A stretch of DNA of 64,000 nt, taken from contig CAZNYS010000011.1 of assembly GCA_964577305.1 (NCBI GenBank), positions 1,507 through 65,506 on the forward strand. The letters are read 5' to 3'. A program made the translations under genes and the position numbers. Origin of the DNA: an uncultured Rikenellaceae bacterium (GTDB taxonomy: Bacteria > Bacteroidota > Bacteroidia > Bacteroidales > VadinHA17). Under the pieces are notes generated by a model. It made no database searches and was not told where the DNA came from. It saw only the letters and a program-made list of their open reading frames with translations. This document shows positions 9,891 to 64,000 of the stretch, one piece after another; positions within the stretch are counted from its first letter, which is position 1, and the number at the start of each line of letters is the position of its first letter.

Positions 9891-9896
9891 TTAATT

Positions 9897-11432: not shown

Positions 11433-13529
11433 ATGACTGTTATAAATCCGGATGATTCTGTTCGTGATGAACAATTCGATGCAGAAAATGAATCTGCCGA
11501 AACTAATAGTGAAACCAACAAAGCTGAAACAAAAGCTGAATCAAAAGAAGAAGGATCTACCACCAATGGTGAGGATTTGAAATCCGAACCTGATAAAGAG
11601 GCTTCCGTCTCCGCCATGGCTGCGGAGGATAAGAAGGTTAAGGGAAAAGAAGAAGAATCTACTAATGGTGAAGATTCAAAATCCGAACCTGATAAAAAGC
11701 AAAAAGCTGAGGAGAAAGAGGAGGCTAAGGCAGATGACATTTCAGAGGATAGTGAAGATTCGTCAGGAAAGGGAACTGAGGAAGAACCTGACGAATTGCC
11801 GGAGGTTGACTATACGGGGAGATCTAAGGTTGAGCTCACGGAAACTCTTGAATTACTTATTGAAAACAGGCCGCTGAATGAGATAGTCGATGATGTTGAC
11901 AAGATAAAAACCATATTCTATAAAAAGCATAAGGCAGAACTCGATAAAAAGAAGAAAAAATTCCTGGAAGAAGGAGGGAGAATTGAAGATTATCAGCCTG
12001 CCGATGATCCGTTGGAGCTTAAAATAAAAAACCTTCTTGCCCGCTTCAGGGGTAAGAAAACTGAATACAACAAACAGCTCGAAGTTGAGAAACAGGAAAA
12101 CCTCAGGAAAAAGTATGATATAATTGATAAGATAAAAGACCTGGTTAACAGGGAAGAATCAATTAATAAAACATTCCAGGAATTCAGGGATTTGCAGGCC
12201 CAGTGGCACTCAACAGGCATAGTGCCTCAGTCTTCGCTCAGGAACCTTTGGGAAACCTATAACCTGAATGTTGAAATTTTCTATGATTATATTAAGATTA
12301 ACAAGGAACTGAGGGACCTGGACTTAAAAAAGAACCTGGAAAGCAAAATTAAGCTGTGCGAAAAAACGGAAGAACTTTTATTGGACCCCAATGCTGTGAA
12401 TGCTTTCAGAGCTCTTCAGGAATACCACCAGCAATGGAGAGAAATAGGGCCGGTTCCAAGAGAGTCAAGGACAGAATTGTGGGATAGATTCAAGGCTGCT
12501 ACTTCAAATATAAATAAGAGACATCACGAATATTTTGAAAAGCAGAAGGACGAACAAAAAAAGAATTTGGAAGCCAAAACGGCATTATGCGAAAAAGTAG
12601 AGGAAATAAATAATCTTAAATTAAAAACCTTCAAAGATTGGGAAAGTAAAGCCAAAGAGGTAATTGAAATACAAAAAGTTTGGCGTACTATAGGCTTTGC
12701 TCCCAAAAGACATAATAACAGCATTTACCAGAGATTCAGAGAAGGCTGTGATGCTTTCTTCCAGGCAAAAAGAGAATTCTATGCCGAAAACAGAGAACAG
12801 CAGTTGGCTAACCTTCAGAAAAAAACTGAATTATGCATGCAGGCAGAAACATGGAAGGACAGCACTGAATGGAAAGAAGCAACTGATGCCCTGATAAACT
12901 TGCAGAAAGAATGGAAGGAGATAGGTACTGTTCCCAGAAAACACTCGGATAAAATATGGCGACGATTTAGAAAAGCCTGTGATCGCTTTTTTGAAAGAAA
13001 ATCAGAACATTTTACTGAACTGGACAGCTCCTTTGAAGATAATCTTAAAGAAAAAGAAAAGCTTATAGACGAACTTGAAAATTTCGATCCGGGGGACGAT
13101 ATTAATGAGGCTTTTGAAAAACTTAAGGAGATTCAAAGAAAATGGACTGAAGTAGGTTTTGTACCATATAAAGATAAGGATAAAATAGGAAACCGGTACA
13201 GGAATGCCCTGAATGAACAATTCGACAGGCTGAAAATAGATGAGGACGAGAAAGCTATTCTTAAATTTCAGACAAAGCTGGAGAATATCAAGGAAACGCC
13301 AAAAGCAACAAGAAAACTAAGGGGAGAGAGAGAAAAATTCATAAACAGGATTAAACAACTTGAGAATGACATTGTTGTGTGGGAAAATAATATTGGCTTC
13401 TTTTCAAAATCAAGCAATGCAGAGTCGATGATCCAGGAAGTGCAGTCAAAAATTGACAACGCGAAGAAAACAATAGAAGTGCTTGAAGAAAAAATAAAGC
13501 TGATTGACCAGTCGGGAATTGATAATTAA
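11433..13529 (+). CDS. DUF349 repeat protein with an acidic low-complexity N-terminus
   Basis: Multiple DUF349-type repeats of about 75 aa (W..IG.VP......LW.RF......F..). The N-terminal 120 aa are E/K/D/S-rich. Confidence 0.7.
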   Translation: MTVINPDDSVRDEQFDAENESAETNSETNKAETKAESKEEGSTTNGEDLKSEPDKEASVSAMAAEDKKVKGKEEESTNGEDSKSEPDKKQKAEEKEEAKADDISEDSEDSSGKGTEEEPDELPEVDYTGRSKVELTETLELLIENRPLNEIVDDVDKIKTIFYKKHKAELDKKKKKFLEEGGRIEDYQPADDPLELKIKNLLARFRGKKTEYNKQLEVEKQENLRKKYDIIDKIKDLVNREESINKTFQEFRDLQAQWHSTGIVPQSSLRNLWETYNLNVEIFYDYIKINKELRDLDLKKNLESKIKLCEKTEELLLDPNAVNAFRALQEYHQQWREIGPVPRESRTELWDRFKAATSNINKRHHEYFEKQKDEQKKNLEAKTALCEKVEEINNLKLKTFKDWESKAKEVIEIQKVWRTIGFAPKRHNNSIYQRFREGCDAFFQAKREFYAENREQQLANLQKKTELCMQAETWKDSTEWKEATDALINLQKEWKEIGTVPRKHSDKIWRRFRKACDRFFERKSEHFTELDSSFEDNLKEKEKLIDELENFDPGDDINEAFEKLKEIQRKWTEVGFVPYKDKDKIGNRYRNALNEQFDRLKIDEDEKAILKFQTKLENIKETPKATRKLRGEREKFINRIKQLENDIVVWENNIGFFSKSSNAESMIQEVQSKIDNAKKTIEVLEEKIKLIDQSGIDN

Positions 13530-13543
13530 TATACTCTTTGTAA

Positions 13544-15178
<1,635 letters not shown>

Positions 15179-49200: not shown

Positions 49201-49243
49201 AACCTGGAAATCACAAAATAAAAATACAGAAATAAATGAAAAT

Positions 49244-51772
49244 ATGAAGACATATAAACACCAACCATTAACAGCCATAATATTTATGATCCTTGTTCTG
49301 TTAACAGGATCTTGTAAGGAAAAAGAAATTGCTGCAGGACCAGATTATACTTACTCAGATTGGCCTCATCCGGTGCCGGCAAGGATCTCAGATGAAAACA
49401 ACGATGAACTTTTCCTGATGGCACTCGGGGATGTTAAAACAAGTCTTGCCGACGGTACTTTTGACCCGGTGAAAGATGAGATTACCCTCAATGATGGAAC
49501 AATAATCCCGGACTGGTACAGGGATAGCCTTGGACTTAAATACTACAGCCCGATAAATAAGGAAATATTCCCTCTGCCGCCTTCAGGTTTATGCACATGG
49601 TATTATTATTACCAGCATATTAATGAAGACGAAGTTAAGCTTAATGCGAAATGGATAGGTGAAAACCTGTTGGATTATGGTGCTACATATGTCCAGGTTG
49701 ACGATGGATGGCAGAAAGAAAGGGCAGATGGAGGGCACGGCTCACGCGACTGGACCGGTATCGATATGGCATTTCCTTCGGGAATGGCAAAACTGGCTGA
49801 GTACATAAGAGAGCAGGGATTAATTCCCGGTATCTGGATAGCCCCGCATGGCCAGTCAAACGATTCCGTGGTAATGGCTAGTCCGGATGTTTTTATTTTC
49901 AGGCCAGACAGCACATCAGCATCAAGTACATGGGAGGGAAACTGGTTAATTGATCCGACCACTGAAGCTGCCAACAAATATCTTTTCGATCTGTTCGAAA
50001 TGATGGTTAAATGGGGCTATGATTATTATAAGATTGACGGACAGCCAATTGTTGTCAGGGAATATGAACGTGTAAATGAGTTTATGCGATCACCCTGGCA
50101 GGATAATGAAGAATTGTATCGTAAAACCCTGAATACTATCAGGGAGGCAATAGGGCCAGAAAGATACCTGCTGGGTTGCTGGGGGATTCCTACTGAAGGT
50201 ATTGGAATAATGAACGGTTCAAGAACAGGTGGTGACGTAGTCCTGGGATGGAGTGGCTTTGATGTGGCATTAATGCCTACCATGAGTTATTATTACCAGC
50301 ATAATATTGTGTGGTATACTGATCCGGATGTTATGATGTTACGTCAACCACTTACCCTGCAGCAAGCACAGGTATGGGCAACCTTGCAGGGACTGACCGG
50401 ACAGGCACTCATGACCAGTGACAGGCTTACAGATCTCTCAGATGAAAGAATAGAGCTTCTTAAAAAAGTATATCCTGCCGTTGATATCAGACCGGTAGAC
50501 CTTTTTCCTGCGAATAGGAGAAAAACCCTGTGGGACCTGAAAATTAATCACCTGAGCAGGCAATATGATGTGGTTGGCCTTTTTAATTTTGGAGAAAAAG
50601 AATTGCAGCAGCATGTACTGAAATTCTCTGATATCGGCATTGAACATGATGGCCCATGCCATGTATTCGATTTCTGGAATGATGAATATCTTGGAGCGTG
50701 GGAGAAAGGATTGGCATTTGAAATACCCCCCACAAGCTGCAGGGTAATTACAATTATGCCGGATAATGGAGAGATAAAGTTGATATCTACAAACAGGCAT
50801 ATTACGCAGGGCTGGATTGACCTGGAGGATATTGATTATGATAATGGAAATAAAACATACTCGGGCTTAAGCAATGTGATAAAAGACGATCCTTACCAGC
50901 TGCATTTTGCATATCCGAGAGGTGAATATTATAAAATCAGTAATGTTCAACTCAAAGGTGCGGCAGGATTAAAGAGCGAGATAACAAATCACCAGGGTTG
51001 GTCAACACTTACAATATACTCACCCCGGACGACTGAAATAAGATGGACTGTATCTTTTGATACAGCATATTCATATAAGTACATGACCAGGGAACCTGGC
51101 AGGTTGTCAGCAGAGGCAGTAGGCATTGATGCAGTTAAGCTGAGCTGGGGAGCACAATACTACCTTAATTCAGGATACCAGGTTTATCTTGATGATGAAC
51201 TCATTGGCTATTCTCCTGCCACTTATTTTACTTTAAATGGATTGGATCCTGAAAAGGAATACACAGCAGATGTGAGAACAGTATGGAAAGACGGTGAGGT
51301 TAATCAACGACCTGAAGGAGATGAACAGGAACATGGAATCAAGATAAGGCTTAAATCACTTATACCTGATGTGGTAGAACTCACAGATGTTAAGTCTTCA
51401 GAAGGTGAACCACGATTCACATGGACAGCAGAAATGAATGACAATAGCTTCACCAAGAGTATAGGTGCCTTCGCAGGTAGCAGAACAACATATGACATAA
51501 ATGGTATCTTTAATGAATTTACTGCCATAATAGGAGTTGATGATAAGTCAAGAGTTAGTGATAACAGTGAAGGCATGGTTTTCATTGTTGAAGGTGATGG
51601 GAAAGTTCTTTACAGAAGTAATAGTATGAAATTATCACATAAACCTTTAAATATCTCGGTGAATATATCAGGTGTTAGAAAACTTGTTCTCACATCTGAG
51701 AGCACAGGCGATAATTCACGCCGTAGATTTGGTTTGATGGGTAACTGGGCTGACCCGCTAATAAAAAAGTAG
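49244..51772 (+). CDS. Clan GH-D (GH27/GH36-like) alpha-galactosidase-like lipoprotein with a C-terminal NPCBM-type carbohydrate-binding domain
   Basis: Lipobox LLTGSC. TIM-barrel motifs VQVDDGWQ and YDYYKIDG. The C-terminal 150 aa or so resemble NPCBM/NEW2 (IIGVDD...FIVEGDGKVLYRS...LVLTSESTGDN). ATG at 49244 preferred. Confidence 0.65.
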   Translation: MKTYKHQPLTAIIFMILVLLTGSCKEKEIAAGPDYTYSDWPHPVPARISDENNDELFLMALGDVKTSLADGTFDPVKDEITLNDGTIIPDWYRDSLGLKYYSPINKEIFPLPPSGLCTWYYYYQHINEDEVKLNAKWIGENLLDYGATYVQVDDGWQKERADGGHGSRDWTGIDMAFPSGMAKLAEYIREQGLIPGIWIAPHGQSNDSVVMASPDVFIFRPDSTSASSTWEGNWLIDPTTEAANKYLFDLFEMMVKWGYDYYKIDGQPIVVREYERVNEFMRSPWQDNEELYRKTLNTIREAIGPERYLLGCWGIPTEGIGIMNGSRTGGDVVLGWSGFDVALMPTMSYYYQHNIVWYTDPDVMMLRQPLTLQQAQVWATLQGLTGQALMTSDRLTDLSDERIELLKKVYPAVDIRPVDLFPANRRKTLWDLKINHLSRQYDVVGLFNFGEKELQQHVLKFSDIGIEHDGPCHVFDFWNDEYLGAWEKGLAFEIPPTSCRVITIMPDNGEIKLISTNRHITQGWIDLEDIDYDNGNKTYSGLSNVIKDDPYQLHFAYPRGEYYKISNVQLKGAAGLKSEITNHQGWSTLTIYSPRTTEIRWTVSFDTAYSYKYMTREPGRLSAEAVGIDAVKLSWGAQYYLNSGYQVYLDDELIGYSPATYFTLNGLDPEKEYTADVRTVWKDGEVNQRPEGDEQEHGIKIRLKSLIPDVVELTDVKSSEGEPRFTWTAEMNDNSFTKSIGAFAGSRTTYDINGIFNEFTAIIGVDDKSRVSDNSEGMVFIVEGDGKVLYRSNSMKLSHKPLNISVNISGVRKLVLTSESTGDNSRRRFGLMGNWADPLIKK

Positions 51773-51781
51773 AAGAGAAGT

Positions 51782-53404
51782 ATGGGACTTTCAGGAAATA
51801 TTGTAATTAAGTCTATTATACTTGCATTTGCTTTAACTCTCTTATCATGCAGCAAATCTGAAGATAAACCGAACATCGTTCTTATTATGGCCGATGATAT
51901 GGGTTTCTCTGATATAGGATGTTATGGTGGAGAGATAGAAACACCTAATCTTGACCGGCTGGCATCAGAGGGTATACGTTTTATACAATTTTATAATAAT
52001 GCAAGATGCTGCCCTACCAGGGCAGCCCTGTTGACCGGCCTTTATCCACATCAAGCAGGTCTTGGCCATATGGTTGATGGAGTGGTACGGGATGGTGGTT
52101 ATTATGGTGAAATAAACAGGAATTGTGTTACAATAGCTGAAGTATTGGGCTCTTCGGGTTACTCAACATATATGTCGGGTAAATGGCATGTTTCACGCTC
52201 CGTGCGACCTGAGGATAAGCGTAACTGGCCTCTGCAGAGAGGATTTGATGACTTTTTCGGCACAATTACAGGTGCTGGCAGTTTTTATGACCCGGCAACT
52301 CTAACTCATATGAATGAACCAATAGAAGCAAACTCTGGTTTTTATTATACAGATGCTATATCTGATACAGCCTGTGCATTTATTGAATCGCACTGTCGTA
52401 AAAGAAAAGAAATACCATTTTTCCTGTATGTTGCCTATACCGCCCCTCACTGGCCGCTTCATGCTCCTGATGAAGTTATACAAAAATACCAGAAACTATA
52501 TGAGCAGGGCTGGGATTTACTCAGGCAGAAAAGGTTTGACAGACTTAAAGAACTGGGCATTATGGGCTATGACCTGGTCTTATCTGACAGGGATAGCAGG
52601 GTGCCCGAATGGAAGTCGGTTGAGGAAAAAGAATGGCAGGCCAGGAGAATGGCAACCTATGCTGCCCAGGTTGATATTATGGACCAGGGTATCGGACGAA
52701 TAGTGCAAACACTCCGTGAAGAAAAGCAACTGGATAACACGCTAATACTTTTCCTCTCTGATAATGGAGGATGTGCAGAAGGATGGAATTCCGAAACGGA
52801 GTGGGTGAGAAGATACGCACCGGAATTTAATTTTGATGGCGTCGAACTTCAATTTGGCAATAATCCTTCAATAATCCCCGGGCCCGACAGTACTTACGCA
52901 AGTTACGAGACCGAATGGTCCAACCTGAGCAATACACCATTCAGGTGGTATAAACACTATGGCCATGAAGGAGGTGTGGCTTCACCTTTTATCATGCACT
53001 GGCCAAATAGCCTGGATGATAAAAATAGCCTGAGAAACCAGGTAACTGGAATTATAGATATAATGGCAACCATAGTGGATGTAACAGGAGCTGAATATCC
53101 TGAATTGTACAATGGCAATGCAATAATACCAATGGAGGGCCTGAGCCTTATTGATGCAGCAATAAATAATTCCCCTCTGGACAGGGATGCATATTATTTC
53201 GAGCATGAGTGGAACAGGTACATAAGGAAAGGAAAATGGAAACTGGTGGCTTTATGGAATGGCGACTGGGAATTATACGATATGGAGAAAGACAGAACCG
53301 AGTTGAATGATCTTTCGGATGAATATCCGCAACTGGTGGAGGAACTTAGAGATGAATGGGAAAGATGGGCATGGCGAACCGGTGTTCTGCCAAATGACAG
53401 ATAA
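51782..53404 (+). CDS. Arylsulfatase-family (formylglycine-dependent) sulfatase lipoprotein
   Basis: Lipobox TLLSC. MADDMGFSD metal site. CxPxR motif in RCCPTRAALLTG. Confidence 0.9.
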   Translation: MGLSGNIVIKSIILAFALTLLSCSKSEDKPNIVLIMADDMGFSDIGCYGGEIETPNLDRLASEGIRFIQFYNNARCCPTRAALLTGLYPHQAGLGHMVDGVVRDGGYYGEINRNCVTIAEVLGSSGYSTYMSGKWHVSRSVRPEDKRNWPLQRGFDDFFGTITGAGSFYDPATLTHMNEPIEANSGFYYTDAISDTACAFIESHCRKRKEIPFFLYVAYTAPHWPLHAPDEVIQKYQKLYEQGWDLLRQKRFDRLKELGIMGYDLVLSDRDSRVPEWKSVEEKEWQARRMATYAAQVDIMDQGIGRIVQTLREEKQLDNTLILFLSDNGGCAEGWNSETEWVRRYAPEFNFDGVELQFGNNPSIIPGPDSTYASYETEWSNLSNTPFRWYKHYGHEGGVASPFIMHWPNSLDDKNSLRNQVTGIIDIMATIVDVTGAEYPELYNGNAIIPMEGLSLIDAAINNSPLDRDAYYFEHEWNRYIRKGKWKLVALWNGDWELYDMEKDRTELNDLSDEYPQLVEELRDEWERWAWRTGVLPNDR

Positions 53405-53430
53405 CTGTAGCTTATTAAAAACAAAATAAC

Positions 53431-55788
53431 ATGAAAAAACTGATTTTCTTAATTCTTGGAGCTTTATACATTGCTTCATGCGGTAGCGATGAAAACCAGC
53501 CCCTGACAGGATCACAATGGGGTGAACTGAGGAACGGATCAGCCGAAGATGTAGTATCTTCCGAGGTATTATTCTGGACCCCTGAAAGCCGAAGGGGAGG
53601 AGCAGTGCTTTTCTATGATTTTGATGCCAGAGAAGGAAATAAGAGCCTTACAATATACAGCGACAATCCTTCATATGGCAGGTGGTTCAACAAGGTTAAC
53701 CTGAAACCCTGGTCAAAATACAGGTTTACCGGGTGGGTAAAAACCGATAATCTTGTCCCAGGCGGAAAAAAGGGGGCAGGTATAAGGATAGATGGTATGC
53801 CTGTGGAAACAACAGGCTTTAACGGAACAAATGACTGGACGCAGGTGGAATATGTATTTGAAACAGGTGATAACGATGCGGCAATTGTATCCTGCGTTTT
53901 CGGCCTTGACGGAAGGGCAACAGGAAGAGCATGGTTTGATGATATGAAGTTTGAACTGATATCTGAAGAAAAATTAACTACTTCAATTTCCATTAACATT
54001 GAGGATACCGGGGCACCAATCTCAAAATATATATATGGTCAGTTTATCGAACACCTGGGCCGCTGCATATACGGGGGTATCTGGGCGGAGATGATCAATG
54101 ACAGGAAGTTCTACTATCAACCGGGTACTGAAGAATCAACATGGAGAATCCATGGGAACCGTGAACTTCTTAAAACAGATAATATAAATTCTTATGTTGG
54201 TGAAATTACACCAGTTCTCAGTATCATGCCGGATGATGATGTATCGCTTGTTCAGAGTGAACTGGGACTGAAAGAGGGAATGGGATATACCGGCAGGATA
54301 GTGTTGAAAGCTGACAGTGGTATTGAGAAAGTGACCGTTAACCTGTCCTCGGGAGATTATGTAGAGTCAGTTACAATAGATTCTTTAGAATCCGGTTATA
54401 AAGATTATCCTCTAAATTTTACATCGGATGTGTTTACTCATAATGCATCAATAGAAATTAGTGCTGAAGGAACGGGGAATCTGTATACAGGCACCATCAG
54501 TCTTATGCCAGCTGACAATATTGATGGTTTCAGGAAAGATGTTATAGCGCTTTTAAAAGAGCTTAACTCACCTGTTTACAGGTGGCCGGGAGGTAATTTT
54601 GTAAGCGGCTACGACTGGAATGATGGTATAGGACCACGTGACAAAAGGCCGCCCCGCAAAAACCCGGCATGGACAGGTGTTGAGCATAATGATGTCGGAA
54701 TGCATGAATTCATACAGTTCTGCCGCCTTCTCGGCACAGAACCTTATATAGCCGTGAATGCAGGACTTGGTAATGTGGAACAGGCCCGCCAGCAGGTTGA
54801 ATATTGCAATGGTGATCAAAGTACACCTATGGGCAGGCTGAGGGCTGAAAACGGTGATCCTGAACCATGGAAGGTTAAATGGTGGTCAATAGGTAATGAG
54901 ATGTATGGCAGCTGGCAGCTGGGACATATGTCAACCGAGGCATTTGTTGATAAGCATAATGGTTTTGCGAAAGCAATGAGATCGGTCGATCCTGACATTG
55001 AACTAGTGGCAGTGGGTGAAGTAGGAGAATGGGATGAAATGATCCTTGCCAACTGTGCAGATAATATGGACCTGATAAGTGAACATTTTTACCGCCAGGA
55101 CTGGCATGGTGGCGGATTAATGACACATGCACTTCAAATACCCAGGGCAATAAAAGGTAAAGCCGATGCCCACCGAAGGTACAGGGAAGAAATACCGGGA
55201 CTGGCTGATAAAGATATCAGGATATGCCTTGATGAGTATAATTACTGGTATGGTCCACATATTTATGGTGAACTGGGAACAAGATATTTTATGAGAGATG
55301 CACTGGGAATTGCAGCAGGTATGAACGAATTTTACCGGCAATCGGATATTATTTATATGGCCAATTATGCACAGACCGTTAATGTTATAGGATGTATAAA
55401 AACAAATACCACACATTCAGTAATGGCCTCAACAGGACAGGTGCTTAAGCTTTATCGTGCCAGGTACGGGACTATTCCTTTAAAGGTGGATGGTGAAGCT
55501 CGACCTCTTGATATTGCTGCCGCTCTCAATGATTCATCTGATACCCTGGTGATTTCAGCAGTAAATCCTACATGGAAAAAGGTGGTTATGAATTTTGATA
55601 TTGAAAATGCTGATATAGGTTATGTAGCTGAACACTGGTCGATTACAGCTCCTGATGATATGGCATATAACGAACCGGGCAAACCTGAAAAAGTGGTAAT
55701 TAACGGACCTGTGAGATTATCCGGTATAAAAACCATGGAAATAGATCCCGTGAGTATCAATATTTTCAGAATCCCGCTCAACAAGTAA
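53431..55788 (+). CDS. GH51 alpha-L-arabinofuranosidase with an N-terminal CBM4/9-like module
   Basis: Lipobox YIASC. GH51 motifs YRWPGGNFVSGYDW and WWSIGNEMYG (acid/base Glu). An N-terminal beta-sandwich of about 170 aa ends in RAWFDDMKFE. Confidence 0.8.
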   Translation: MKKLIFLILGALYIASCGSDENQPLTGSQWGELRNGSAEDVVSSEVLFWTPESRRGGAVLFYDFDAREGNKSLTIYSDNPSYGRWFNKVNLKPWSKYRFTGWVKTDNLVPGGKKGAGIRIDGMPVETTGFNGTNDWTQVEYVFETGDNDAAIVSCVFGLDGRATGRAWFDDMKFELISEEKLTTSISINIEDTGAPISKYIYGQFIEHLGRCIYGGIWAEMINDRKFYYQPGTEESTWRIHGNRELLKTDNINSYVGEITPVLSIMPDDDVSLVQSELGLKEGMGYTGRIVLKADSGIEKVTVNLSSGDYVESVTIDSLESGYKDYPLNFTSDVFTHNASIEISAEGTGNLYTGTISLMPADNIDGFRKDVIALLKELNSPVYRWPGGNFVSGYDWNDGIGPRDKRPPRKNPAWTGVEHNDVGMHEFIQFCRLLGTEPYIAVNAGLGNVEQARQQVEYCNGDQSTPMGRLRAENGDPEPWKVKWWSIGNEMYGSWQLGHMSTEAFVDKHNGFAKAMRSVDPDIELVAVGEVGEWDEMILANCADNMDLISEHFYRQDWHGGGLMTHALQIPRAIKGKADAHRRYREEIPGLADKDIRICLDEYNYWYGPHIYGELGTRYFMRDALGIAAGMNEFYRQSDIIYMANYAQTVNVIGCIKTNTTHSVMASTGQVLKLYRARYGTIPLKVDGEARPLDIAAALNDSSDTLVISAVNPTWKKVVMNFDIENADIGYVAEHWSITAPDDMAYNEPGKPEKVVINGPVRLSGIKTMEIDPVSINIFRIPLNK

Positions 55789-55797
55789 ATAATAGTC

Positions 55798-57249
55798 ATG
55801 AAGAAATACGGATTATTTCTTATGGCAGTTATATTATCCATGCTGTCATGCCAGGAGAAAAAAAGACAGCCTGACGTGCTTTTTATTGCCATTGATGATA
55901 TGAATGACTGGATTACCCCGCTGGGAGGCAGGGATGATATGCATACACCCAATCTTGATGCACTGGCTGCCAGGGGGATGATCTTTGAGAATGCACATTG
56001 TACGGCTCCTGCCTGCTGCCCTTCGCGCACAAGTGTGATGACAGGTGTTCGACCCAGTACATCAGGTGTATATGCAAACACTCAACTATGGAGAAAATCA
56101 CCGGTACTGGGCAAGGCCTTAACCATTCCTGAATTTTTCAGGAAACAGGGATATATAGTAAAAGGAGGTGGAAAAATATTCCATGCACTGTCGTGGATCC
56201 AGACAGCATACGGTATCGACCAGAATGATTCAACAATATGGGATGAATACTTTCCTTCCAAATCAAGGTCACTACCACCTTCAATATGGCCTGAGTCATA
56301 TGAAATTAATGATGTTGGGACAGTAACGTGGGATAATATTGCAGGGGCAGGTACAGAAAACAGGCCACCATATTACTTTGACTGGGGGCCCCTGGGTAAA
56401 GAAGAGAATATGGCTGATTATAAAGTTGTAGAATGGGCAGTTTCTGAACTGCAGAAAAAACATGATAAACCACTATTTCTTGCTGTTGGTATTTTCAGAC
56501 CTCATATACCATGGTTTGTACCCCGGGAGTACTTTGATATGTACCCGGTAGATGAAAGGGAATTGCCTAAAATACTTGAGAATGACCTTGATGATGTATC
56601 ATCTGCATCATACCCCTGGCTGAGAAGGCAGTGGCAGAAGTGGATACTTGAGAATGACCAGTGGAAATCTGCCGTTCAGGCTTACGAAGCCTGCATTTCA
56701 TTCTCTGATGCCATGCTTGGTAAACTTATCAGGGGACTTGATGAAAGCGGCAGAGCTGATAATACAATTATTGTACTTTGGTCAGACCATGGTATGCATA
56801 TAGGGGAGAAAGAGCAATGGGAGAAATTTACCCTTTGGGAAGAATCAACAAGAGTACCCTTGATATTTATTGCTCCCGGAATAACAGCACCAGGCTCCCG
56901 CACAGCTGAAGCCGTCAGCTTGCTTGATGTATACCCTACACTTGTAAGCCTGGCAGGAGGGGAGCAATTTGAACAACTTGAGGGAACCGACCTGGTGCCA
57001 CAACTCAGAGATCCCGGAGCCCAGAGAGATGAACCGGCAATAACAACTTACCATAAGGATAATCATTCAGTGAGGACGGAAAGATGGAGATATATCCGCT
57101 ATTATAATGGTGATGAAGAATTATATGATCATAAGAATGACCCTGATGAATTTCATAATATTGCCGATTCCGCCGAACTGAGACCATTAATAGAAGAACT
57201 GTCTAAATGGTTGCCCGAAATCAATGCAGAGGAATTTAGGAATAACTGA
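55798..57249 (+). CDS. Formylglycine-dependent sulfatase lipoprotein (iduronate-2-sulfatase-like)
   Basis: Lipobox MLSC. IAIDDMNDW metal site. CxPxR motif in PACCPSRTSVMTG. Confidence 0.9.
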   Translation: MKKYGLFLMAVILSMLSCQEKKRQPDVLFIAIDDMNDWITPLGGRDDMHTPNLDALAARGMIFENAHCTAPACCPSRTSVMTGVRPSTSGVYANTQLWRKSPVLGKALTIPEFFRKQGYIVKGGGKIFHALSWIQTAYGIDQNDSTIWDEYFPSKSRSLPPSIWPESYEINDVGTVTWDNIAGAGTENRPPYYFDWGPLGKEENMADYKVVEWAVSELQKKHDKPLFLAVGIFRPHIPWFVPREYFDMYPVDERELPKILENDLDDVSSASYPWLRRQWQKWILENDQWKSAVQAYEACISFSDAMLGKLIRGLDESGRADNTIIVLWSDHGMHIGEKEQWEKFTLWEESTRVPLIFIAPGITAPGSRTAEAVSLLDVYPTLVSLAGGEQFEQLEGTDLVPQLRDPGAQRDEPAITTYHKDNHSVRTERWRYIRYYNGDEELYDHKNDPDEFHNIADSAELRPLIEELSKWLPEINAEEFRNN

Positions 57250-57316: not shown

Positions 57317-58612
57317 ATGAAGATCGAGAATATCCTGATCACTCCATTCCAGAAATTCGTTAAAGTTGAAAGCCTGAGTGGTGTTTTACTGTTCGGGGCA
57401 ACTATTATAGCGCTTATATGGGCAAATTCACGCTTTGCCACGGTATATGATTCCATCTGGCAATATGAAATTGGGATTAAGACAGCTGATTTTGAGTTAT
57501 CCAAACCACTGATATTATGGATAAATGATGGTTTGATGGCTATCTTTTTCTTCCTGATAGGCCTGGAGATAAAGCGTGAAGTGATGATAGGGGAACTGAA
57601 TAACCTAAAGAAAGCCTCATTCCCCATATTTGCTGCACTTGGAGGCATGATAATACCTGTTAGCCTTTATATCATACTCAATAAAGATCCCGGAACATCA
57701 CATGGCTGGGGTATACCTGCAGCAACAGATATTGCCTTTTCACTTGCCATATTGCAATTACTTGGGAAAAGAGTGCCTGTAAGCCTTAAGGTTTTCCTGG
57801 CCGCTTTTGCAATTGTTGATGATATTGGAGCTGTTGTCCTTATAGCAGTATTTTACAGTACTGGCATAAAATGGGCTTTGCTGATAATCGCATTGGCAAT
57901 AATTATCATTCTTATTATCCTGTCTTCCAGGAGTATATACTCAAAATATTTATTTTTTATCGCAGGGTTTGTGGTCTGGCTCCTTTTCCTTAAAGCCGGT
58001 TTTCATCCTACTGTGGCTGGTGTTTTACTTGCCTTCACGATACCAATAAGAAAAAAGATTGATGTTAATACATATGCCGTTAATTTGTGCAGCATAGCAG
58101 ATAAGTTCAGGGATGCAGGCGATGGCAAAAGTCCTGTGCTGTCGAAAGAGCAGGTTGAATATATTGACGACCTGGAAGACTGGACAAGCAAGGTGCAATC
58201 CCCACTGCAGCATCTGGAGCACAGCCTGCATAACTGGGTGGCCTATCTAATTATACCAATTTTCGCTTTTGCAAATGCCGGTATTAACCTGAGCACAGGT
58301 ACTGATCTTAATTATGACCTGATACTGACAATAATGGTAAGCCTTTTTGCAGGAAAGTCAATTGGCATTTCATTGTTCACCTGGTTGGCCAGGAAATTCA
58401 AGCTTACAGTAATGCCGAAGGGAATAAACAACTGGCAATTAACGGGTATTACTTTCCTTGCAGGAGTGGGATTTACAATGTCAATATTTATTTCAAACAT
58501 CGCTTTTGCTGATAATCCTGCCGTGGTAAATTCAGCTAAAATAGGAATAATAGCCGGGTCATTGATCTCCGGGCTGACCGGCTATTTAATTCTCAGGTTC
58601 ACAGCAAAATGA
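57317..58612 (+). CDS. nhaA: Na+/H+ antiporter NhaA
   Basis: Typical NhaA N-terminus (FVKVESLSGVLLFGATIIALIWANS). Conserved IPAATDIAFSL and AIVDDIGAV motifs. About 11-12 TM segments. Confidence 0.9.
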   Translation: MKIENILITPFQKFVKVESLSGVLLFGATIIALIWANSRFATVYDSIWQYEIGIKTADFELSKPLILWINDGLMAIFFFLIGLEIKREVMIGELNNLKKASFPIFAALGGMIIPVSLYIILNKDPGTSHGWGIPAATDIAFSLAILQLLGKRVPVSLKVFLAAFAIVDDIGAVVLIAVFYSTGIKWALLIIALAIIIILIILSSRSIYSKYLFFIAGFVVWLLFLKAGFHPTVAGVLLAFTIPIRKKIDVNTYAVNLCSIADKFRDAGDGKSPVLSKEQVEYIDDLEDWTSKVQSPLQHLEHSLHNWVAYLIIPIFAFANAGINLSTGTDLNYDLILTIMVSLFAGKSIGISLFTWLARKFKLTVMPKGINNWQLTGITFLAGVGFTMSIFISNIAFADNPAVVNSAKIGIIAGSLISGLTGYLILRFTAK

Positions 58613-58894: not shown

Positions 58895-59314
58895 ATGGAA
58901 GAGATTATAAAAGAAGCGGGAAAGCCCGGGGAATCAAGCGAAACAGTAGAGGCTAAAACTGCTGCAAAGACTAAAAAAAGATATCGCGGGAAAGTGCCTG
59001 CGCCACCCACTGTGCGCAAACAAAGGGTAACCCGCGACCGCCCGATTAAAAGTATAGTAAAAGCTATAACCTGGCGATTGATTGCTTCTGCTACAACTTT
59101 TGGGCTGGCATACCTTTTCTTTCACAAGGACCCGTATGCTGCCCAGAAGGCTACAGGCATAGCAATAGCTGAAGCATTTATAAAAATGTTATTATATTTC
59201 TTTCATGAAAGATTATGGGAACGTATTAGGTGGGGACGTATGCTGGTGATCATACGAAGGGGCACACGTAAGTCGAAGAGGTCAATAAGGAGGATAATAT
59301 TAATGAAACCCTGA
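58895..59314 (+). CDS. DUF2061 family membrane protein
   Basis: KAITWRLIASATTFGLAYLF ... IAIAEAFIKMLLYFFHERLW with basic N- and C-terminal tails. The stop codon overlaps the cysH start codon by 1 nt. Confidence 0.7.
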   Translation: MEEIIKEAGKPGESSETVEAKTAAKTKKRYRGKVPAPPTVRKQRVTRDRPIKSIVKAITWRLIASATTFGLAYLFFHKDPYAAQKATGIAIAEAFIKMLLYFFHERLWERIRWGRMLVIIRRGTRKSKRSIRRIILMKP

Positions 59315-60021
59315 TGATGGATAATAAAGCTGAAGAATTACTGTCTGTTTTGCATGATAAGAGCCCTGTAGATGGATTACAACTCCTTGCTGAGCTATAT
59401 CCCGGCGAGATTGTTTTTACAACAAGCTTCGGTATAGAAGACCAGGTTATCACCGATATGATCTTTTCAAATAATATTAAGATTGAAGTGATAACACTTG
59501 ATACCGGCCGGCTGTTCAAAGAAACATATAAGGTATTCAGCAAGACCATTGAAAAATATGGAAGGAACATAAAAACATATTTTCCTGATGCAAGCTCCGT
59601 AGAAAAGCTGCTTTCAGAAAAAGGTCCGTATAGTTTCTACGAATCAATTGAAAACAGGAAAGAATGCTGCCATATACGCAAGGTTGAGCCTCTCAACCGG
59701 GCCCTGGAAGGAATGAAGTGCTGGATCACTGGTATCCGGGCAACACAATCCTCAAGCCGTGATGAACTGGAAATGATAGAAACTGATGAAGAAAGGGGTA
59801 TATACAAATATAATCCTTTGCTTAACTGGGAATTAAGCGATGTGGAGGAGTATATTAAAAAGCATAATGTCCCATACAATATATTACATGACAAAGGTTA
59901 TGCAAGCATAGGTTGTGAGCCATGTACACGTGCTATTAAACCAGGCGAGGACCTCCGCGCCGGAAGGTGGTGGTGGGAATCCGGCTCCAGCAAGGAATGC
60001 GGCCTGCATGAGAATAATTAA
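59314..60021 (+). CDS. cysH: Thioredoxin-dependent adenylyl-/phosphoadenylyl-sulfate reductase (CysH), Fe-S cysteine-pair type
   Basis: PAPS_reduct fold. C-terminal redox motif KECGLH. Cys pairs KECCHIRKVEPL and SIGCEPCT, as found in the [4Fe-4S] APS-reductase class. Confidence 0.85.
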   Translation: MMDNKAEELLSVLHDKSPVDGLQLLAELYPGEIVFTTSFGIEDQVITDMIFSNNIKIEVITLDTGRLFKETYKVFSKTIEKYGRNIKTYFPDASSVEKLLSEKGPYSFYESIENRKECCHIRKVEPLNRALEGMKCWITGIRATQSSSRDELEMIETDEERGIYKYNPLLNWELSDVEEYIKKHNVPYNILHDKGYASIGCEPCTRAIKPGEDLRAGRWWWESGSSKECGLHENN

Positions 60022-60125
60022 GGCTAAGGTAAGACAGAAGGTTGTTTTATTTTTAAAGTTCTTAGCACTTCGCCCTTTGATTTGTGCCCTACGTAACCCA
60101 AAACCCAAACCGAGCTCCGAGAATA
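60022..60125. repeat. Possible divergent third copy (C) of the GGCTAAGG-initiated intergenic element
   Basis: GGCTAAGGT starts on the nucleotide right after the cysH TAA stop. Internal stem GCTAAG/CTTAGC. Only patchy similarity to copy A otherwise (TTCGCCC, CCTACG, AACCGAGCT). Confidence 0.4.
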
Positions 60126-60477
60126 GTGTAAATTTACTTAACCTCAACCTGTATAGAATTCACTTTCAGTATTTCTTTAAAGGTATTCAGCTCGTAATCC
60201 AATTTTATCCAAATCAAAATATTATTTAGGATATTACCGTTTATTAAAGCAGCTGGCAACTTGTTTGTTGCATATTTCATTTATCTGACATAAAAATACG
60301 ATAGCTGAAAGATGAAGTCAAATATATTTTTATATGCTTATAATCAGGATTTTTATTTAAGGTTCTTAGGGAGATTGATTGCTATTGACTAAATTGCATC
60401 TGATAATGCATTTTATATTGATATTGTGCAGACTCAATACTGTCAGTTTAATATATGTCAAATCAAATTGATAAGCA

Positions 60478-62142
60478 ATGGTAATATCAGACCGAATACC
60501 GATTACTGTAGGTGTTATAGGTCATCTTGATGTTATAACAACAGACGAACACAGGGTACAAATAGAAAAATTGTTCAGCGATCTGGCTGCAAAGTATCCC
60601 AATACACCTGTTCACCTTTTTTCCTCAATTGCAGAAGGTGCCGACAGGTTCGTTGCTGAAATCTTCTTAAATATGAAATGGGAAAATGAAGAATACCATG
60701 ATAGGTTCGAACTGATTGTCCCTTTGCCTTTTGATCCTGAAGAATACAAGGCAGACTTTGATGATTTTTCTGATAAAGAATTTGATGCCCTGCTTAAACA
60801 GGCAAAAAGAAGTTTTATCGTTGGCTATGATGGTAAAGAGATTGACAGGCCCCGTCAGTATTTAAAAACCGGCAAACTGGTAGCAGACAGTTCTATGATT
60901 CTGATTGCCCTGTGGGATGGAAAGGTGGGAAAGAAAGGAGGAACGGCTGATATAGTAAAACACAAAATAACGGGGGACGATGATACAGTTGCTGAAAGCA
61001 CATTTGAATATGATGGTACTGTCTTTATTTTACCCAGTCAAAGGGAACAGTCTCCAGATAATATTTCAAAAAAATATAAAAACATCGAATCTCTGTCCCT
61101 GGATCTTGTTCTAAAAGATGTTACACTGAGAGAGGCCCTTGAAAAAATTGAAGAGATAAACAGGGATTCAGTTCATATTGGTCAGGCCGACCTTGAAAAA
61201 TCACAACCATATTTGTTTAATAAGCCTGAGAAACTGAATATTCCTCAGAGGTCATTGATGGTATGGTATTCACTTCTTGATCAGTTATCACTGAAATGCA
61301 GGAAGAAAGATCTGATGGCTACTGCCTTGCTTTTTGTTTTAGGATTGTTCTTTATCCTGGGACTGGAAATATATTCAAATATATGGGTTAACAGACTTGT
61401 ACTGGCAGTTACTATGTCTCTTCTTGTTCTTGCGACCGCAGTATTGATTTATTCGAGGATAAAAAAAGATCATGCTAAATATTTATACAACAGGACCCTG
61501 GCAGAAGCTTTAAGAATCCAGTTTTACTGGAACTTTGCAGGGTTGCAGGAAAATGTCTCTGATTATATCCTGAGAATACACCGCAAGGAATTCACCTGGG
61601 TAAAACACATTCTTTCTGCTCTTTATGGACTAACATATAACACTAGATCCATAAATCCTGAAACAATAGAGGACCTTACAGATAACTGGATTAAAGACCA
61701 GGCCTCTTTTTTCAATTCTTCAATAATTAAGATGAACGAACGAATAACCCGTTATCACAGGGTATCCAATGTGGCATTTGTTATGGCATTTATTCTTTTT
61801 GTTTCAATATTCTTTCTGGGTACTTTCTATGCATCAAATGATTTTCTGCTTAACATATTACTGGTTATAGCTCCAATATTACTGGGGATCTTTGCTTTAA
61901 TCAGGACATATATTAATATGAAGGGATATGAGCAGTTAGTGAATCAGTATGAGCTGATGCAGGTTATTTATAAAAGAGCTGAAGCTAAGATTGCCGAGCT
62001 GCATCAAACACCTCTAAAATCAGGGGAGAGGGATTCGTATTTCAGGGAACTGTTTTTTGTTATCGGGAAAGAAGCACTTATCGAGAACGGTATCTGGTAC
62101 CTGATATTTAAAGAGAAAGAGCCGGAGCTTGAAGTTGGATGA
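60478..62142 (+). CDS. SLOG-like (LOG/DprA-type Rossmannoid) N-terminal domain fused to two 2TM SLATT/DUF4231-like membrane modules
   Basis: N-terminus ITVGVIGHLDV ... SSIAEGADRFVAEIFL ... LIALWDGKVGKKGGTADIVKH. Two hydrophobic hairpins follow: ALLFVLGLFFILGLEIY/LVLAVTMSLLVLATAVLIY and VAFVMAFILFVSIFFLGTFY/LLVIAPILLGIFALI. Each is preceded by an amphipathic helix. Confidence 0.55.
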   Translation: MVISDRIPITVGVIGHLDVITTDEHRVQIEKLFSDLAAKYPNTPVHLFSSIAEGADRFVAEIFLNMKWENEEYHDRFELIVPLPFDPEEYKADFDDFSDKEFDALLKQAKRSFIVGYDGKEIDRPRQYLKTGKLVADSSMILIALWDGKVGKKGGTADIVKHKITGDDDTVAESTFEYDGTVFILPSQREQSPDNISKKYKNIESLSLDLVLKDVTLREALEKIEEINRDSVHIGQADLEKSQPYLFNKPEKLNIPQRSLMVWYSLLDQLSLKCRKKDLMATALLFVLGLFFILGLEIYSNIWVNRLVLAVTMSLLVLATAVLIYSRIKKDHAKYLYNRTLAEALRIQFYWNFAGLQENVSDYILRIHRKEFTWVKHILSALYGLTYNTRSINPETIEDLTDNWIKDQASFFNSSIIKMNERITRYHRVSNVAFVMAFILFVSIFFLGTFYASNDFLLNILLVIAPILLGIFALIRTYINMKGYEQLVNQYELMQVIYKRAEAKIAELHQTPLKSGERDSYFRELFFVIGKEALIENGIWYLIFKEKEPELEVG

Positions 62143-62223
62143 CTTCAGTAACAGAAAGACCTGCGATAATGATTTTATCCAGGTTATATTTTTTTCGTAA
62201 CTTTATTTAAATGAATTGTTGAT

Positions 62224-64000
62224 ATGGCAAGTATAATTGAAGGATACGAATACGATATCTTTATCAGCTACAGGCAAAAGGACAACAAATACGATGGGTG
62301 GGTCACCGAGTTTGTCAATAATCTCCAGCGGGAACTGGATGCTACCTTTAAGGAAGATGTGTCGATATATTTCGATGAAAACCCACACGATGGATTGCTT
62401 GAGATTCATAATGTCGACAAAAGTCTTGAAACAAAACTCAAATCTGTGGTATTTATACCAATTATCTCCCAGACATACTGTGATCCGAAAAGCTTTGCAT
62501 GGCATAATGAATTTGTTGCATTCAACAAAATGGCAGGTGAAGATCAGTTTGGCAGGGATATTAAGCTGCCAGATGGCAATGTCTGCAGCAGGATTATACC
62601 TGTGAAAATTCATGATCTTGATCCGACCGACACTGAACTGGTTGAAAATGAGCTTGGCTGCAGGCTCCGTTCAATAGACTTCATTTTTTCGAGTGCCGGG
62701 GTGAACAGACCTTTAACACCTCACGATAATCCGGACAAGAATCTCAACAAGACTTATTACCGAGACCAGATCAATAAAGTGGCGAACGCTGTTAAGGAGA
62801 TCATTTACGGACTTCATCCTGATAAGAAAAAAAGGATCACAAAAACATACCAAACCAGGACTCAGGCAGGATACATTGATGAACCTGCTAAAATAATGGA
62901 TGGAAGAGATGCAAGACCAAAATGGTTGACCGGTAAGATAATTGCTCCCGTAGCCATAGGGATACTGGCAATACTTGCAATAATATATGTAATACCCAAA
63001 TTGTCGCAGAAAGCCGAAAAGCAAATATTACCTGACATATCAATAAGAAAAGCGGTTGCTGTAATGCCCGTTTCCAATTTTACAGGCGACCCTGAGATGG
63101 GCTGGATCGCTGATATGATCCAGAGTGATCTGACCGGCCAGCTTCAGGGTATCAGTAACCTGGTCGTAAGGCCAAAACAAACAACATTGCAGTTCAGGAA
63201 CAGTCAGGAACCGGTACAGGATATCGCCAGGAAACTGAGTGTAAATAACCTTATAGAAACTTCTATAAAGGGAACCGAGGATAAGCTTCAGGTGGAAATA
63301 ACGGTTCTTGAAGCATTCCCGGAAGAAAAATACCTGTATCGTTCTTCATTCACCCACAGTTTTTCTGAACTGGCAAATATATACAGTGATATGGTCAACC
63401 GGATACTCAAGGAAATGGAGGTTAAACCAACAGAAGATGAAGAGGCAACAATATCAGCAAGAACCGTTAACCCTGAAGTACGAAAAGCCTGTGCGCGGGG
63501 ATCATATTATATGAGTCAGCTTACCCAGGAGGGGTTTGAAAAAGGGGTGGAGTATTATGAAGAGGCTATAGCTATTGATCCTGCTGATCCTGAACCATAT
63601 ATAGGACTGGCACTGGGTTATGGAAGTGCCGGCCATGGTGCCGGTATTGCATCCCTTAATATGGCTAAAGCCTATGCCCTTAAAGCCATAGAACTCGATC
63701 CTGAGGAACTGCATCCCAATCTTGCCGATGCCCACGTAGTACTGGCTGAAACATATCTTTACCATGATTATGATTTTGTGAAAGCCGAACACCACCTGAA
63801 ACGAGCCATCGACCTTAATCCAAACAGCGCACCAGCCCATTATACATATGGATGGTATATTGCCCTGACCGACCAGGTGGATGAAGCCGCAGATGAGATG
63901 AGGATAGCCATGCAGATAAATCCCCTTGCTCCCATATGCCCGGGATACCTTGGCTGGATGTTTCAGTGGTTCGGCCGTTATGAGGAAGCAATAAGCTATG
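62224..64000 (+). CDS. TIR domain - TM - TolB_N-like - TPR protein (3' partial; not in the ORF track because no stop codon lies in the window)
   Basis: Manual translation from the ATG at 62224 (in-frame TGA at 62212) stays open for 592 codons to nt 64000. TIR start YDIFISYRQKDN and W..E motif FAWHNEF. TM segment IIAPVAIGILAILAIIYVI. Then VAVMPVSNFTGDPEMGWIADMIQSDL and TPRs (YYEEAIAIDPADPEPYIGLALGY...). Confidence 0.8.
   Translation, partial: MASIIEGYEYDIFISYRQKDNKYDGWVTEFVNNLQRELDATFKEDVSIYFDENPHDGLLEIHNVDKSLETKLKSVVFIPIISQTYCDPKSFAWHNEFVAFNKMAGEDQFGRDIKLPDGNVCSRIIPVKIHDLDPTDTELVENELGCRLRSIDFIFSSAGVNRPLTPHDNPDKNLNKTYYRDQINKVANAVKEIIYGLHPDKKKRITKTYQTRTQAGYIDEPAKIMDGRDARPKWLTGKIIAPVAIGILAILAIIYVIPKLSQKAEKQILPDISIRKAVAVMPVSNFTGDPEMGWIADMIQSDLTGQLQGISNLVVRPKQTTLQFRNSQEPVQDIARKLSVNNLIETSIKGTEDKLQVEITVLEAFPEEKYLYRSSFTHSFSELANIYSDMVNRILKEMEVKPTEDEEATISARTVNPEVRKACARGSYYMSQLTQEGFEKGVEYYEEAIAIDPADPEPYIGLALGYGSAGHGAGIASLNMAKAYALKAIELDPEELHPNLADAHVVLAETYLYHDYDFVKAEHHLKRAIDLNPNSAPAHYTYGWYIALTDQVDEAADEMRIAMQINPLAPICPGYLGWMFQWFGRYEEAISY

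Follow-up and report, generated by a model that had tools for sequence, protein, structure and literature searches.

Among the Thoeris systems, type I comprises ThsA, a SIR2-SLOG protein activated by TIR-made 3' cyclic ADP-ribose (3'cADPR). Secondary citations of Van den Berg et al. 2024 describe type III as several TIRs together with a SLOG effector of the SMF/DprA type, ThsD. Type IV has the TIR and caspase configuration; its preprint describes a two-gene operon, with no mention of a SLOG gene, and its effector is a caspase-like protease hypothesised to bind N7-cADPR via its own C-terminal domain. Type VII is formed by a TIR and the SLATT effector ThsH, with canonical cADPR as the signal (bioRxiv 10.64898/2025.12.03.692087). 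Pfam names SLATT the 'SMODS and SLOG-associating 2TM effector domain', where 2TM refers to two transmembrane (TM) segments, and the combination of SLOG and SLATT with TIR is already an established computational prediction according to the Pfam SLATT description. The YpsA-like SLOG clade has been described as including cADPR-sensing members (PMC9503650). To these systems we compare a locus in a 64,000-nucleotide stretch of DNA from an uncultured Rikenellaceae bacterium (contig CAZNYS010000011.1), called the window below, where an open reading frame (ORF) of 554 aa (60478..62142, + strand, ATG start), here named SLOG-4TM, is followed by a gene for a TIR protein. We lean towards reading the two as a Thoeris-like pair for TIR-dependent nucleotide signalling, in which SLOG-4TM would be the receiver and effector half.

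The SLOG-4TM gene (60478..62142, seen as an ORF, in its homologs and in a structural model) encodes a protein in which a YpsA-like SLOG domain is connected through a helical linker to two SLATT-like 2TM modules; all features of this gene and of its TIR partner lie on the + strand. The six motifs quoted in an initial annotation of this DNA were all found in the 554-aa ORF, with exact coordinates: VGVIGH at aa 11-16, AEGADRF at aa 52-58, LWDG at aa 145-148, KGGT at aa 153-156, and the amphipathic stretches WYSLLDQLSLKCRKK at aa 263-277 and WIKDQASFFNSSIIKMNERITRYHR at aa 404-428. A word-indexed search of a 90%-identity database identified 294 clusters matching the protein at E<=1e-3, nearly all of them of 552-554 aa, with 60-99% identity and an alignment that begins at Met1. 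The exhaustive HMMER search with the family profile identified 6027 representative clusters at E<=1e-3 and 956 at E<=1e-30, most of the matched clusters keeping the full-length architecture. Because there are many full-length homologs aligned from Met1, the ORF is, by sequence comparison, a genuine and widely conserved gene, not one that arose by chance. The relatives are called 'hypothetical protein' or carry a spurious automated label in their sources, and none of the names looked up for distant members was informative. This is a family of thousands of sequence clusters, unnamed, in a field, Thoeris signalling, that is growing fast. Matches to hAT RNase-H, holin and UbiA, returned by single-sequence library scans of the window protein, were rejected as spurious, being TM or compositional noise.

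The SLOG domain (YpsA/DUF1273-like, Rossmannoid; aa 7-190, 60496..61047) was delimited from an AlphaFold2 (AF2) model, a Foldseek comparison, invariant residues, weak family matches and hhalign. The AF2 model was obtained from a 28-sequence alignment, with a mean predicted local distance difference test score (pLDDT) of 80.3 and a predicted TM-score (pTM) of 0.79, and comprises a beta-alpha-beta Rossmann-like domain (about aa 9-186), a linker with three helices and a membrane part that is helical throughout. The strands (E) and helices (H) of the SLOG domain are E9-15, H23-39, E45-48, H55-69, E77-83, E111-114, H124-138 and E141-146. The top Foldseek match of the N-terminal domain in the PDB was Bacillus subtilis YpsA (2nx2; E 1.4e-4, probability 1.0, TM-target 0.68), followed by DprA (probability 1.0) and then by a series of TRPM channels; the Aravind classification counts all three in the SLOG superfamily, DprA and the TRPM N-terminal region reportedly in Burroughs et al. 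2015. This fold comparison is the sole informative PDB comparison for SLOG-4TM: PDB sequence profile searches with two family alignments and with the N-domain alignment gave nothing significant, returning TM noise, OmpH and YpsA at E 1.4. In alignments at 25-40% identity, conservation is complete or reaches at least 90% for G12, G15, H16, A52, G54, D56, D147, G154, G155 and T156, which are classical SLOG loop positions and form the predicted nucleotide pocket.

At the level of family models, PF06908 (YpsA) is carried by one close SLOG-4TM homolog (E 1.5e-5). With the N-domain alone, PF10686 YAcAr, a YpsA-related SLOG family, was matched in 12 of 23 diverse members (best E 0.002) and DprA in 4 of the 23. 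The initial annotation had proposed a SLOG-like domain, naming a cluster-4 type among the SLOG domains described in such fusions, to be checked by profile models and by structural comparison to the SLOG of ThsA. The SLOG fold stood, on the Foldseek matches to YpsA, DprA and TRPM and on the loop residues, the fold and the weak sequence matches all pointing to SLOG and none to an unrelated fold. The cluster-4 part did not: LD_cluster4 was never seen in scans of 28, 50 or 23 members, and the assignment was replaced by a YpsA/DUF1273-like one; the YpsA, YAcAr and DprA models were weak in family members and none was over threshold in the window protein. ThsA was absent from the top 50 Foldseek matches. 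Judged from the model, the N-terminal domain has the SLOG fold and belongs to the YpsA/DUF1273 branch.

Between the SLOG domain and the membrane part lies the helical linker (aa 205-254, 61090..61239), the most variable part of the protein, of low conservation and with AF2 helices at aa 208-212, 215-231 and 236-246. By Kyte-Doolittle hydropathy the protein has four TM segments, which pair into two tight hairpins at about aa 280-301/306-329 and 429-452/455-482. Each hairpin has a long helix before it and cytoplasmic helices after it in the AF2 model, with K/R-rich flanks, so the two hydrophobic hairpins with a preceding helix noted at first reading are borne out by hydropathy and AF2. The first 2TM module (aa 255-353, 61240..61536) comprises a juxtamembrane helix, TM1, TM2 and a cytoplasmic helix, recognised from hydropathy, AF2, a sub-threshold SLATT_3 match (264-346) and invariant residues. 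An invariant YxRxLAExLRxQ motif (R339, E343, R346) is located in the cytoplasmic helix directly after hairpin 1. The second module (aa 394-510, 61657..62007) comprises a long helix, TM3, TM4 and a cytoplasmic helix, recognised from hydropathy, AF2 and sub-threshold matches to SLATT_1 and RTasSLATT. The last element is a C-terminal cytoplasmic helix (aa 515-546, 62020..62115; alignments and AF2) with the motif GKEALxENGxW, where E536 and W540 are invariant. The helices with YxRxLAExLRxQ and GKEALxENGxW are candidate coupling elements.

The assignment of the two modules to SLATT holds in part. In the window protein, SLATT_1 (NF033634) matched at aa 418-495 with E 4e-4 and 20.3 bits against a cutoff of 41, SLATT_3 at aa 264-346 with E 0.25 and 11-12 bits against cutoffs of 26-45, and the PADLOC model RTasSLATT at aa 409-506 with E 0.004. 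When 50 diverse members of the family were scanned, SLATT_1 was matched in 13 (best 3.4e-9) and SLATT_3 and DUF4231 in 8 each. The 2TM hairpin layout and the recurrence of these three models in the family speak for SLATT-like modules, as first annotated, while the window protein stays under every cutoff. Modules 1 and 2 show a weak resemblance to each other (hhalign probability 67%, E 5e-5, 69 columns), which is suggestive of an internal duplication.

The neighbouring TIR gene that the initial annotation had mentioned does exist: its ORF starts at 62224, 81 bp downstream of SLOG-4TM on the same strand, and encodes a TIR fold. The spacer (62143..62223), delimited as the gap between the ORFs, was free of + strand terminator-like hairpins in a hairpin scan. 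The partner gene (62224..63999; ORF and TPR Pfam matches) is truncated by the window end, with 592 aa seen, and comprises a divergent TIR domain, a single TM helix, a juxtamembrane domain and a TPR array; its orthologs in other genomes (L003, L004, L007, L009, L012 and L013) are of 729-739 aa. The TIR domain (aa 1-205, 62224..62838; AF2/Foldseek and a TIR hidden Markov model, HMM) carries the betaA motif YDIFISYRQKD. Against Pfam TIR_2 it scored 15 bits (E 0.036), not reaching the cutoff of 28, and against an HMM built here from canonical TIRs it gave 1e-5 to 1e-8. Its AF2 model (pLDDT 78, pTM 0.75) had TcpB/BtpA, Roq1, AbTir, L6, RUN1, RPS4 and TLRs as top Foldseek matches, with probabilities of about 1. 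Going by this model, the N-terminal domain of the partner is a divergent TIR subfamily. The motif SFAWHNEF (SxxWxxEF), where alphaC (helix 91-106) starts, contains residue E96 (62509-62511), which is shared by all of 26 sequences. By motif and secondary structure, as distinct from a residue-level superposition, E96 would match the position of the catalytic Glu of NAD-cleaving TIRs.

The single TM helix of the partner (aa 239-257, 62938..62994) coincides with the hydropathy maximum (2.94) and is found at the same position in about 20 paralogs. It is followed by a predicted extracytoplasmic C-terminal region (63007..63999), delimited from the TPR matches and the inferred topology, which comprises a juxtamembrane domain of about 150 aa and TPR from about aa 430. 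Because the TIR domain is N-terminal and lacks a signal peptide, with one TM helix after it, it would be cytoplasmic and the TPR region periplasmic.

Linkage to TIR was counted in 46 genome loci with SLOG-4TM relatives, cited here by L number, and in further loci for remote members, using HMM scans of six-frame translations; loci flanked by 2.5 kb or more on each side, 32 in all, were taken as informative. In an ORF clustering, the most recurrent neighbours by far were proteins with the TIR-like N-domain or the TM-TPR module (52 genes in 27 loci). Of the 32 informative loci, 22 have a TIR-type gene no farther than 3 kb away and 12 have one within 300 bp. Such genes occur at 1.35 per 10 kb up to a distance of 3 kb from SLOG-4TM and at 0.26 per 10 kb beyond. 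In the 64-kb window the sole TIR-type ORF is the gene downstream of SLOG-4TM.

Partners over the TIR_2 threshold were identified in several lineages: L033 (Flavobacteriaceae), with 63.5 bits and TPR; L045 (Winogradskyella pelagia), with 64.8 bits and also ThsB_TIR; L039 (Saprospiraceae), with 39 bits; L005, with 76.6 bits and TPR; L001, with 83 bits, a TM helix and FGE-sulfatase; and also at L053 and on the P0170 contig. One metagenome contig carries an nSTAND2-TIR_2 gene 20 bp upstream of a SLOG-4TM relative, another a ThsB_TIR/TIR_2-WD40 partner, and further contigs carry DUF4062-NACHT-TPR and DUF4062-methyltransferase genes near SLOG-4TM relatives, DUF4062 being a domain that we take to be TIR-like. 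On the mobilizable plasmid pSBC2-4 of Caballeronia, a protein named 'DUF4231 domain-containing protein' by NCBI belongs to the family in its full-length form (hhalign 99.7%, 442 columns); after it come a protein annotated as TIR and a WD40 protein. The linkage extends to Flavobacteriaceae, Saprospiraceae, Chitinophagales, Burkholderiales (the plasmid) and unclassified metagenome lineages, from several phyla. The membrane-anchored form of the TIR partner recurs outside the clade of the window's TIR protein (L039, L053 with TIR-TM-WD40, and L001) and is not universal. Because different TIR subfamilies, gene orders and orientations are found across lineages, the linkage goes beyond inherited synteny; it is independent of the divergent TIR subfamily and of Bacteroidales synteny. 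A link to a signal-generating enzyme, as first supposed, is thus found in several phyla and several architectures, and the TIR linkage recurs even though the context in the window is a housekeeping one.

Compared with type I Thoeris, the likeness lies in a SLOG receiver for the product of an adjacent TIR and in the two-gene organisation. The output is different, SIR2 NADase in ThsA and four TM helices here, and so is the TIR partner, here membrane-anchored; the SLOG of ThsA is of the STALD type, as given in a review, whereas the one here is YpsA/DUF1273-like. Type III Thoeris is reportedly a system described in Pseudomonas aeruginosa. It shares with our loci the presence of several TIR genes and a SLOG effector that is not of the STALD type, and the N-domain here matches DprA by fold and weakly by sequence. 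SLOG-4TM may possibly be identical with ThsD of type III. With type VII, the shared element is a TIR gene adjoining a SLATT-type membrane effector predicted to oligomerise and breach the membrane. ThsH, however, is SLATT alone, with ligand pockets between SLATT protomers (bioRxiv 10.64898/2025.12.03.692087), whereas in SLOG-4TM a separate SLOG domain is devoted to sensing and the SLATT-like modules, two in tandem, stay under the SLATT thresholds.

Outside Thoeris, the best structural match, B. subtilis YpsA (2nx2, DUF1273/PF06908), shares its PF06908/DUF1273 labels with the family and its standalone relatives; it differs in being a soluble single-domain protein, with an insignificant sequence match (E 1.4). 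TRPM2-type channels also place a SLOG-fold nucleotide sensor (MHR1/2) on a membrane-permeation module and are gated by ADP-ribose, but their TM domains are unrelated, forming a 6TM tetrameric channel and not two 2TM hairpins. The TRPM matches have a root-mean-square deviation of about 30 A and TM-scores of 0.1-0.25, which makes this an architectural analogy and not membership. Burroughs et al. 2015 are said to have predicted SLOG/SMODS-SLATT conflict systems. Such systems resemble SLOG-4TM in the coupling of a nucleotide-sensing SLOG to a 2TM SLATT effector and in the TIR association; SLOG-4TM differs in being missed by curated models, in its tandem 4TM part, in being a stable Bacteroidales chromosomal gene and in its TM-anchored TIR-TPR paralogs. 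What sets the family apart from the verifiable known systems is the YpsA-type SLOG joined to tandem SLATT-like modules, reaching no curated threshold and absent from PADLOC. Further differences are the stable Bacteroidales gene, the membrane-anchored TIR-TPR paralogs and the standalone SLOG in TIR-caspase operons (see below).

By analogy to ThsA, ThsH, type II Thoeris (Macro-TM) and TRPM2, a ligand, TIR catalysis, gating, a pore and a biological role may be proposed for the pair. SLOG-4TM would be an inner-membrane protein whose cytoplasmic YpsA-type SLOG serves as ligand sensor and is connected by the linker to the two SLATT-like hairpins. A trigger would be sensed by the repeat domain of the partner and the TIR domains would assemble; the TIR active site with Glu96 would then turn NAD+ into an ADP-ribose-derived messenger, e.g. 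a cADPR isomer. The messenger would dock in the glycine-rich pocket of SLOG (GxxGH, AEGAD, WDG...GGT), the helices with YxRxLAExLRxQ and GKEALxENGxW would relay the change, and the four TM helices would oligomerise or open. The membrane would thus be depolarised or permeabilised, leading to growth stop or cell death, and SLOG-4TM may in this way act in abortive infection or defence. SLOG-4TM would be a clean test case for which cADPR-type ligand the YpsA-clade SLOGs read.

Several results weigh against a Thoeris-like signalling pair. No model of Pfam, NCBIfam or PADLOC is over threshold in the window protein, its N-domain has no match in the same three collections, including no curated SLOG model over threshold, and PADLOC has no model for SLOG-4TM. 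No defence or mobile-element genes were identified near SLOG-4TM in the window, and its close relatives likewise lie outside defence islands, among housekeeping or PUL genes in stable synteny; the GC content is unremarkable, and phage records and IMG/VR viral contigs contained no SLOG-4TM relatives. In 10 of the 32 informative loci the flanks are free of TIR-type genes. Some members stand alone among housekeeping genes (SprA, RuvA, aconitase), as in L038/L047, one Chitinophagales member lying between ruvA and aconitase. Arrays of TIR-like genes at L059:10001-14734 and L060:10001-14052 lie more than 10 kb from any SLOG-4TM gene. TIRs that sense phage do not usually have a periplasmic sensor. 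Finally, some SLOGs are enzymes, those of the LOG family for example, and one standalone copy accompanies a caspase effector; SLOG may therefore be catalytic or degrade the signal.

The TIR-like partners are members of a paralog family. Their architecture is a TIR-like domain, one TM helix at about aa 230-280 and a large C-terminal region, which has TPR in 25 and FGE-sulfatase in 4 out of 30. In the paralogs L004:4177-6153 and L007:3374-5377 an AraC-type helix-turn-helix (HTH) takes the place of TIR while TM and TPR are the same, so the cytoplasmic output domain joined to the TM + TPR module can differ. A single SLOG-4TM gene is surrounded by 4 paralogs in L001 and by 4-5 in L025 and L026. The TIR-like domain is highly conserved (60-95% identity), the C-terminal regions are variable, and the database holds 1661 clusters of TIR-like proteins versus 294 of SLOG-4TM.

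An alternative with the same chemistry would make the pair a physiological sensor of the envelope or environment rather than a suicidal anti-phage module; we consider it unlikely, if still deserving attention. In the form we would give it, held at the same low level of belief, a receptor-like family with periplasmic TPR/FGE, one TM helix and cytoplasmic TIR would turn envelope or extracellular cues into an NAD-derived messenger and feed one SLOG-gated conductance, combining the topology of TLRs with the logic of TRPM2. The topology that would place the TPR/FGE region in the periplasm agrees with this, as do the AraC HTH, a classical signalling output, on the TM + TPR module; the several paralogs per SLOG-4TM gene, with others dispersed in the genome and reflected in the cluster numbers; the conserved TIR-like domain with varying C-terminal regions; the TRPM channels among the Foldseek matches; and the window vicinity free of defence and mobile-element genes. 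It agrees also with the fixed chromosomal positions beside housekeeping genes: nhaA-DUF2061-cysH-SLOG-4TM is found, whole or partial, in six other genomes (L003, L005, L013, L027, L030 and L046), and at least three other conserved chromosomal contexts exist, so there are at least four synteny groups. Within one synteny group, however, the partner is a divergent TIR, a canonical TIR-TPR or none (window/L003/L013 versus L005/L027/L046), being replaced or lost as in the turnover of defence loci. Distant members pair with nSTAND-TIR, NACHT-TPR and TIR-WD40, have STAND, AAA_15 and HTH_17 genes as neighbours or sit on a mobilizable plasmid, which are typical conflict contexts. TPR and FGE are also common sensors of conflict systems, and SLATT domains are known only as toxic effectors. 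If envelope sensing were true, TIR-nucleotide signalling would serve outside-in sensing in bacteria, and the SLOG-gated conductance would be a prokaryotic counterpart of the ADPR-gated TRPM2. A single effector served by many TIR sensors would be wired in a way new to such systems, and outward-facing repeats on membrane TIRs raise the question of whether bacterial TIRs report events at the envelope or outside as animal TLRs do.

The arrays of TIR-TM-TPR/FGE genes look like a receptor-like multigene family. Arrays of 2-5 genes are located at L001:323-6506 and 9699-12329 and at L025:1472-6084 and 11525-13942; further arrays of this size at L026:1-6922 and 11652-12233 and at L020:2458-6872 and 11553-13148, as well as those of L059 and L060. 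TIR-like paralogs of 924-931 aa with other C-terminal domains are found at L015:5710-8502 and L037:660-3431, the one in L015 having FGE-sulfatase followed by an alpha/beta-hydrolase (PETase/DLH-like) domain and no TPR. The heads of L015 and L037 suggest diverse extracytoplasmic sensor or enzymatic heads.

The standalone relatives of the N-terminal domain bear on a second alternative. A standalone SLOG homolog of 149-162 aa (hhalign 99.5%) is the third gene of TIR + caspase operons, located at L057:4635-6489 (B. subtilis pBS72) and L058:4642-6483 (Agrobacterium pTiCFBP5877, a Ti plasmid). Its UniRef name is 'DUF1273 family protein' and PF06908 was identified in two members. This suggests an overlooked third component in some type IV Thoeris loci. 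Since the published effector of these operons is the caspase-like protease, SLOG could instead be an enzyme, a LOG-like N-glycosidase or a cADPR hydrolase acting as off-switch or immunity factor, and the TM segments of SLOG-4TM would mainly anchor it. The SLOGs of the LOG family are enzymes, some SLOGs are predicted in the literature to process ADPr derivatives (PMC9503650), and there is little or no variation at the polar residues H16, D56 and D147. Yet the TM region exceeds a simple anchor, with two SLATT-like modules and the residues R339, E343, R346, E536 and W540 invariant across the family; SLATT owes its name in Pfam to such a fusion with a sensor, and YpsA-clade SLOGs are described as including cADPR sensors (PMC9503650). 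We hold the enzymatic alternative to be distinctly improbable. A third one, in which SLOG-4TM is a housekeeping membrane protein and the TIR adjacency is inherited synteny in one Bacteroidales lineage, fits the housekeeping context in the window and in L038/L047 and the approximately one third of informative loci without a TIR-type gene, but was already disfavoured by the linkage across lineages, TIR subfamilies, gene orders and orientations and has very little probability left.

SLOG-4TM and its TIR neighbour are located in an ordinary Bacteroidales chromosomal context, and the closest syntenic relatives of the window are labelled uncultured Rikenellaceae. Upstream of SLOG-4TM are nhaA (57317-58612), a DUF2061 gene (58895-59314) and cysH, the PAPS reductase gene (59314-60021). 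The intergenic region between the end of cysH (60021) and the ORF start (60022..60477, + strand) is of 456 bp, AT-rich with a GC of 0.31, and is presumed to be the promoter region; scans for sigma-70 and for the Bacteroidota TAnnTTTG element were uninformative there and gave no confident promoter. A terminator-like hairpin is found downstream of cysH at 60256-60271. Farther upstream, a polysaccharide-degradation cluster (46459-57249) comprises DUF5695, melibiase/NPCBM, two sulfatases and an alpha-L-arabinofuranosidase-like gene. One SLOG-4TM member in another genome, an exception to the TIR linkage, follows a PatA_N-TPR gene.

When the window is compared with L003, protein identity is 92.6% for TIR-TPR (L003:6539-8743 versus window:62224-63999), 69.5% for SLOG-4TM (L003:4697-6358 versus window:60478-62142), 78.5% for cysH and 85% for nhaA. 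Because the identity of SLOG-4TM is lower than that of its partner, cysH and nhaA, the effector gene apparently diverges faster than partner and neighbours, or was exchanged.

In one Bacteroidales lineage SLOG-4TM is adjoined by a Metallophos gene (about 335 aa, usually about 50 bp upstream), a DUF4956 membrane protein (about 200 aa) and a 358-aa protein. The loci are L017:6932-11400, L019:6718-11540, L022:6917-11388, L024:5044-10320, L025:6297-8000 and L029:9633-12500, and the trio is retained despite inversions and reordering. The 358-aa protein had no Pfam match, and neither it nor the Metallophos protein had sequence relatives in the PDB. The trio could be accessory components, e.g. a signal-degrading phosphoesterase, or local synteny.

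Another recurrent neighbour is a LigT/2H phosphoesterase gene, identified 1-2 genes upstream of SLOG-4TM in seven syntenic genomes (L004:2803-3357; also L006, L007, L009, L011, L014 and L028). The substrates of 2H enzymes are cyclic-phosphate nucleotides, including ADPr derivatives; the adjacency may be plain synteny.

Finally, proteins with a RyR domain were identified near members of the SLOG-4TM family in unrelated lineages (L029:5059-7846, L019:1729-4611, L036:3149-5800, L025:14059-17002 and L054:12-407). In L029 a SiaC/DUF6272 gene and, paired with it, a gene for RyR + SpoIIE (PP2C phosphatase) are immediately upstream of SLOG-4TM, and a 131-aa RyR-domain gene is located 56 bp upstream of the remote member P0187.

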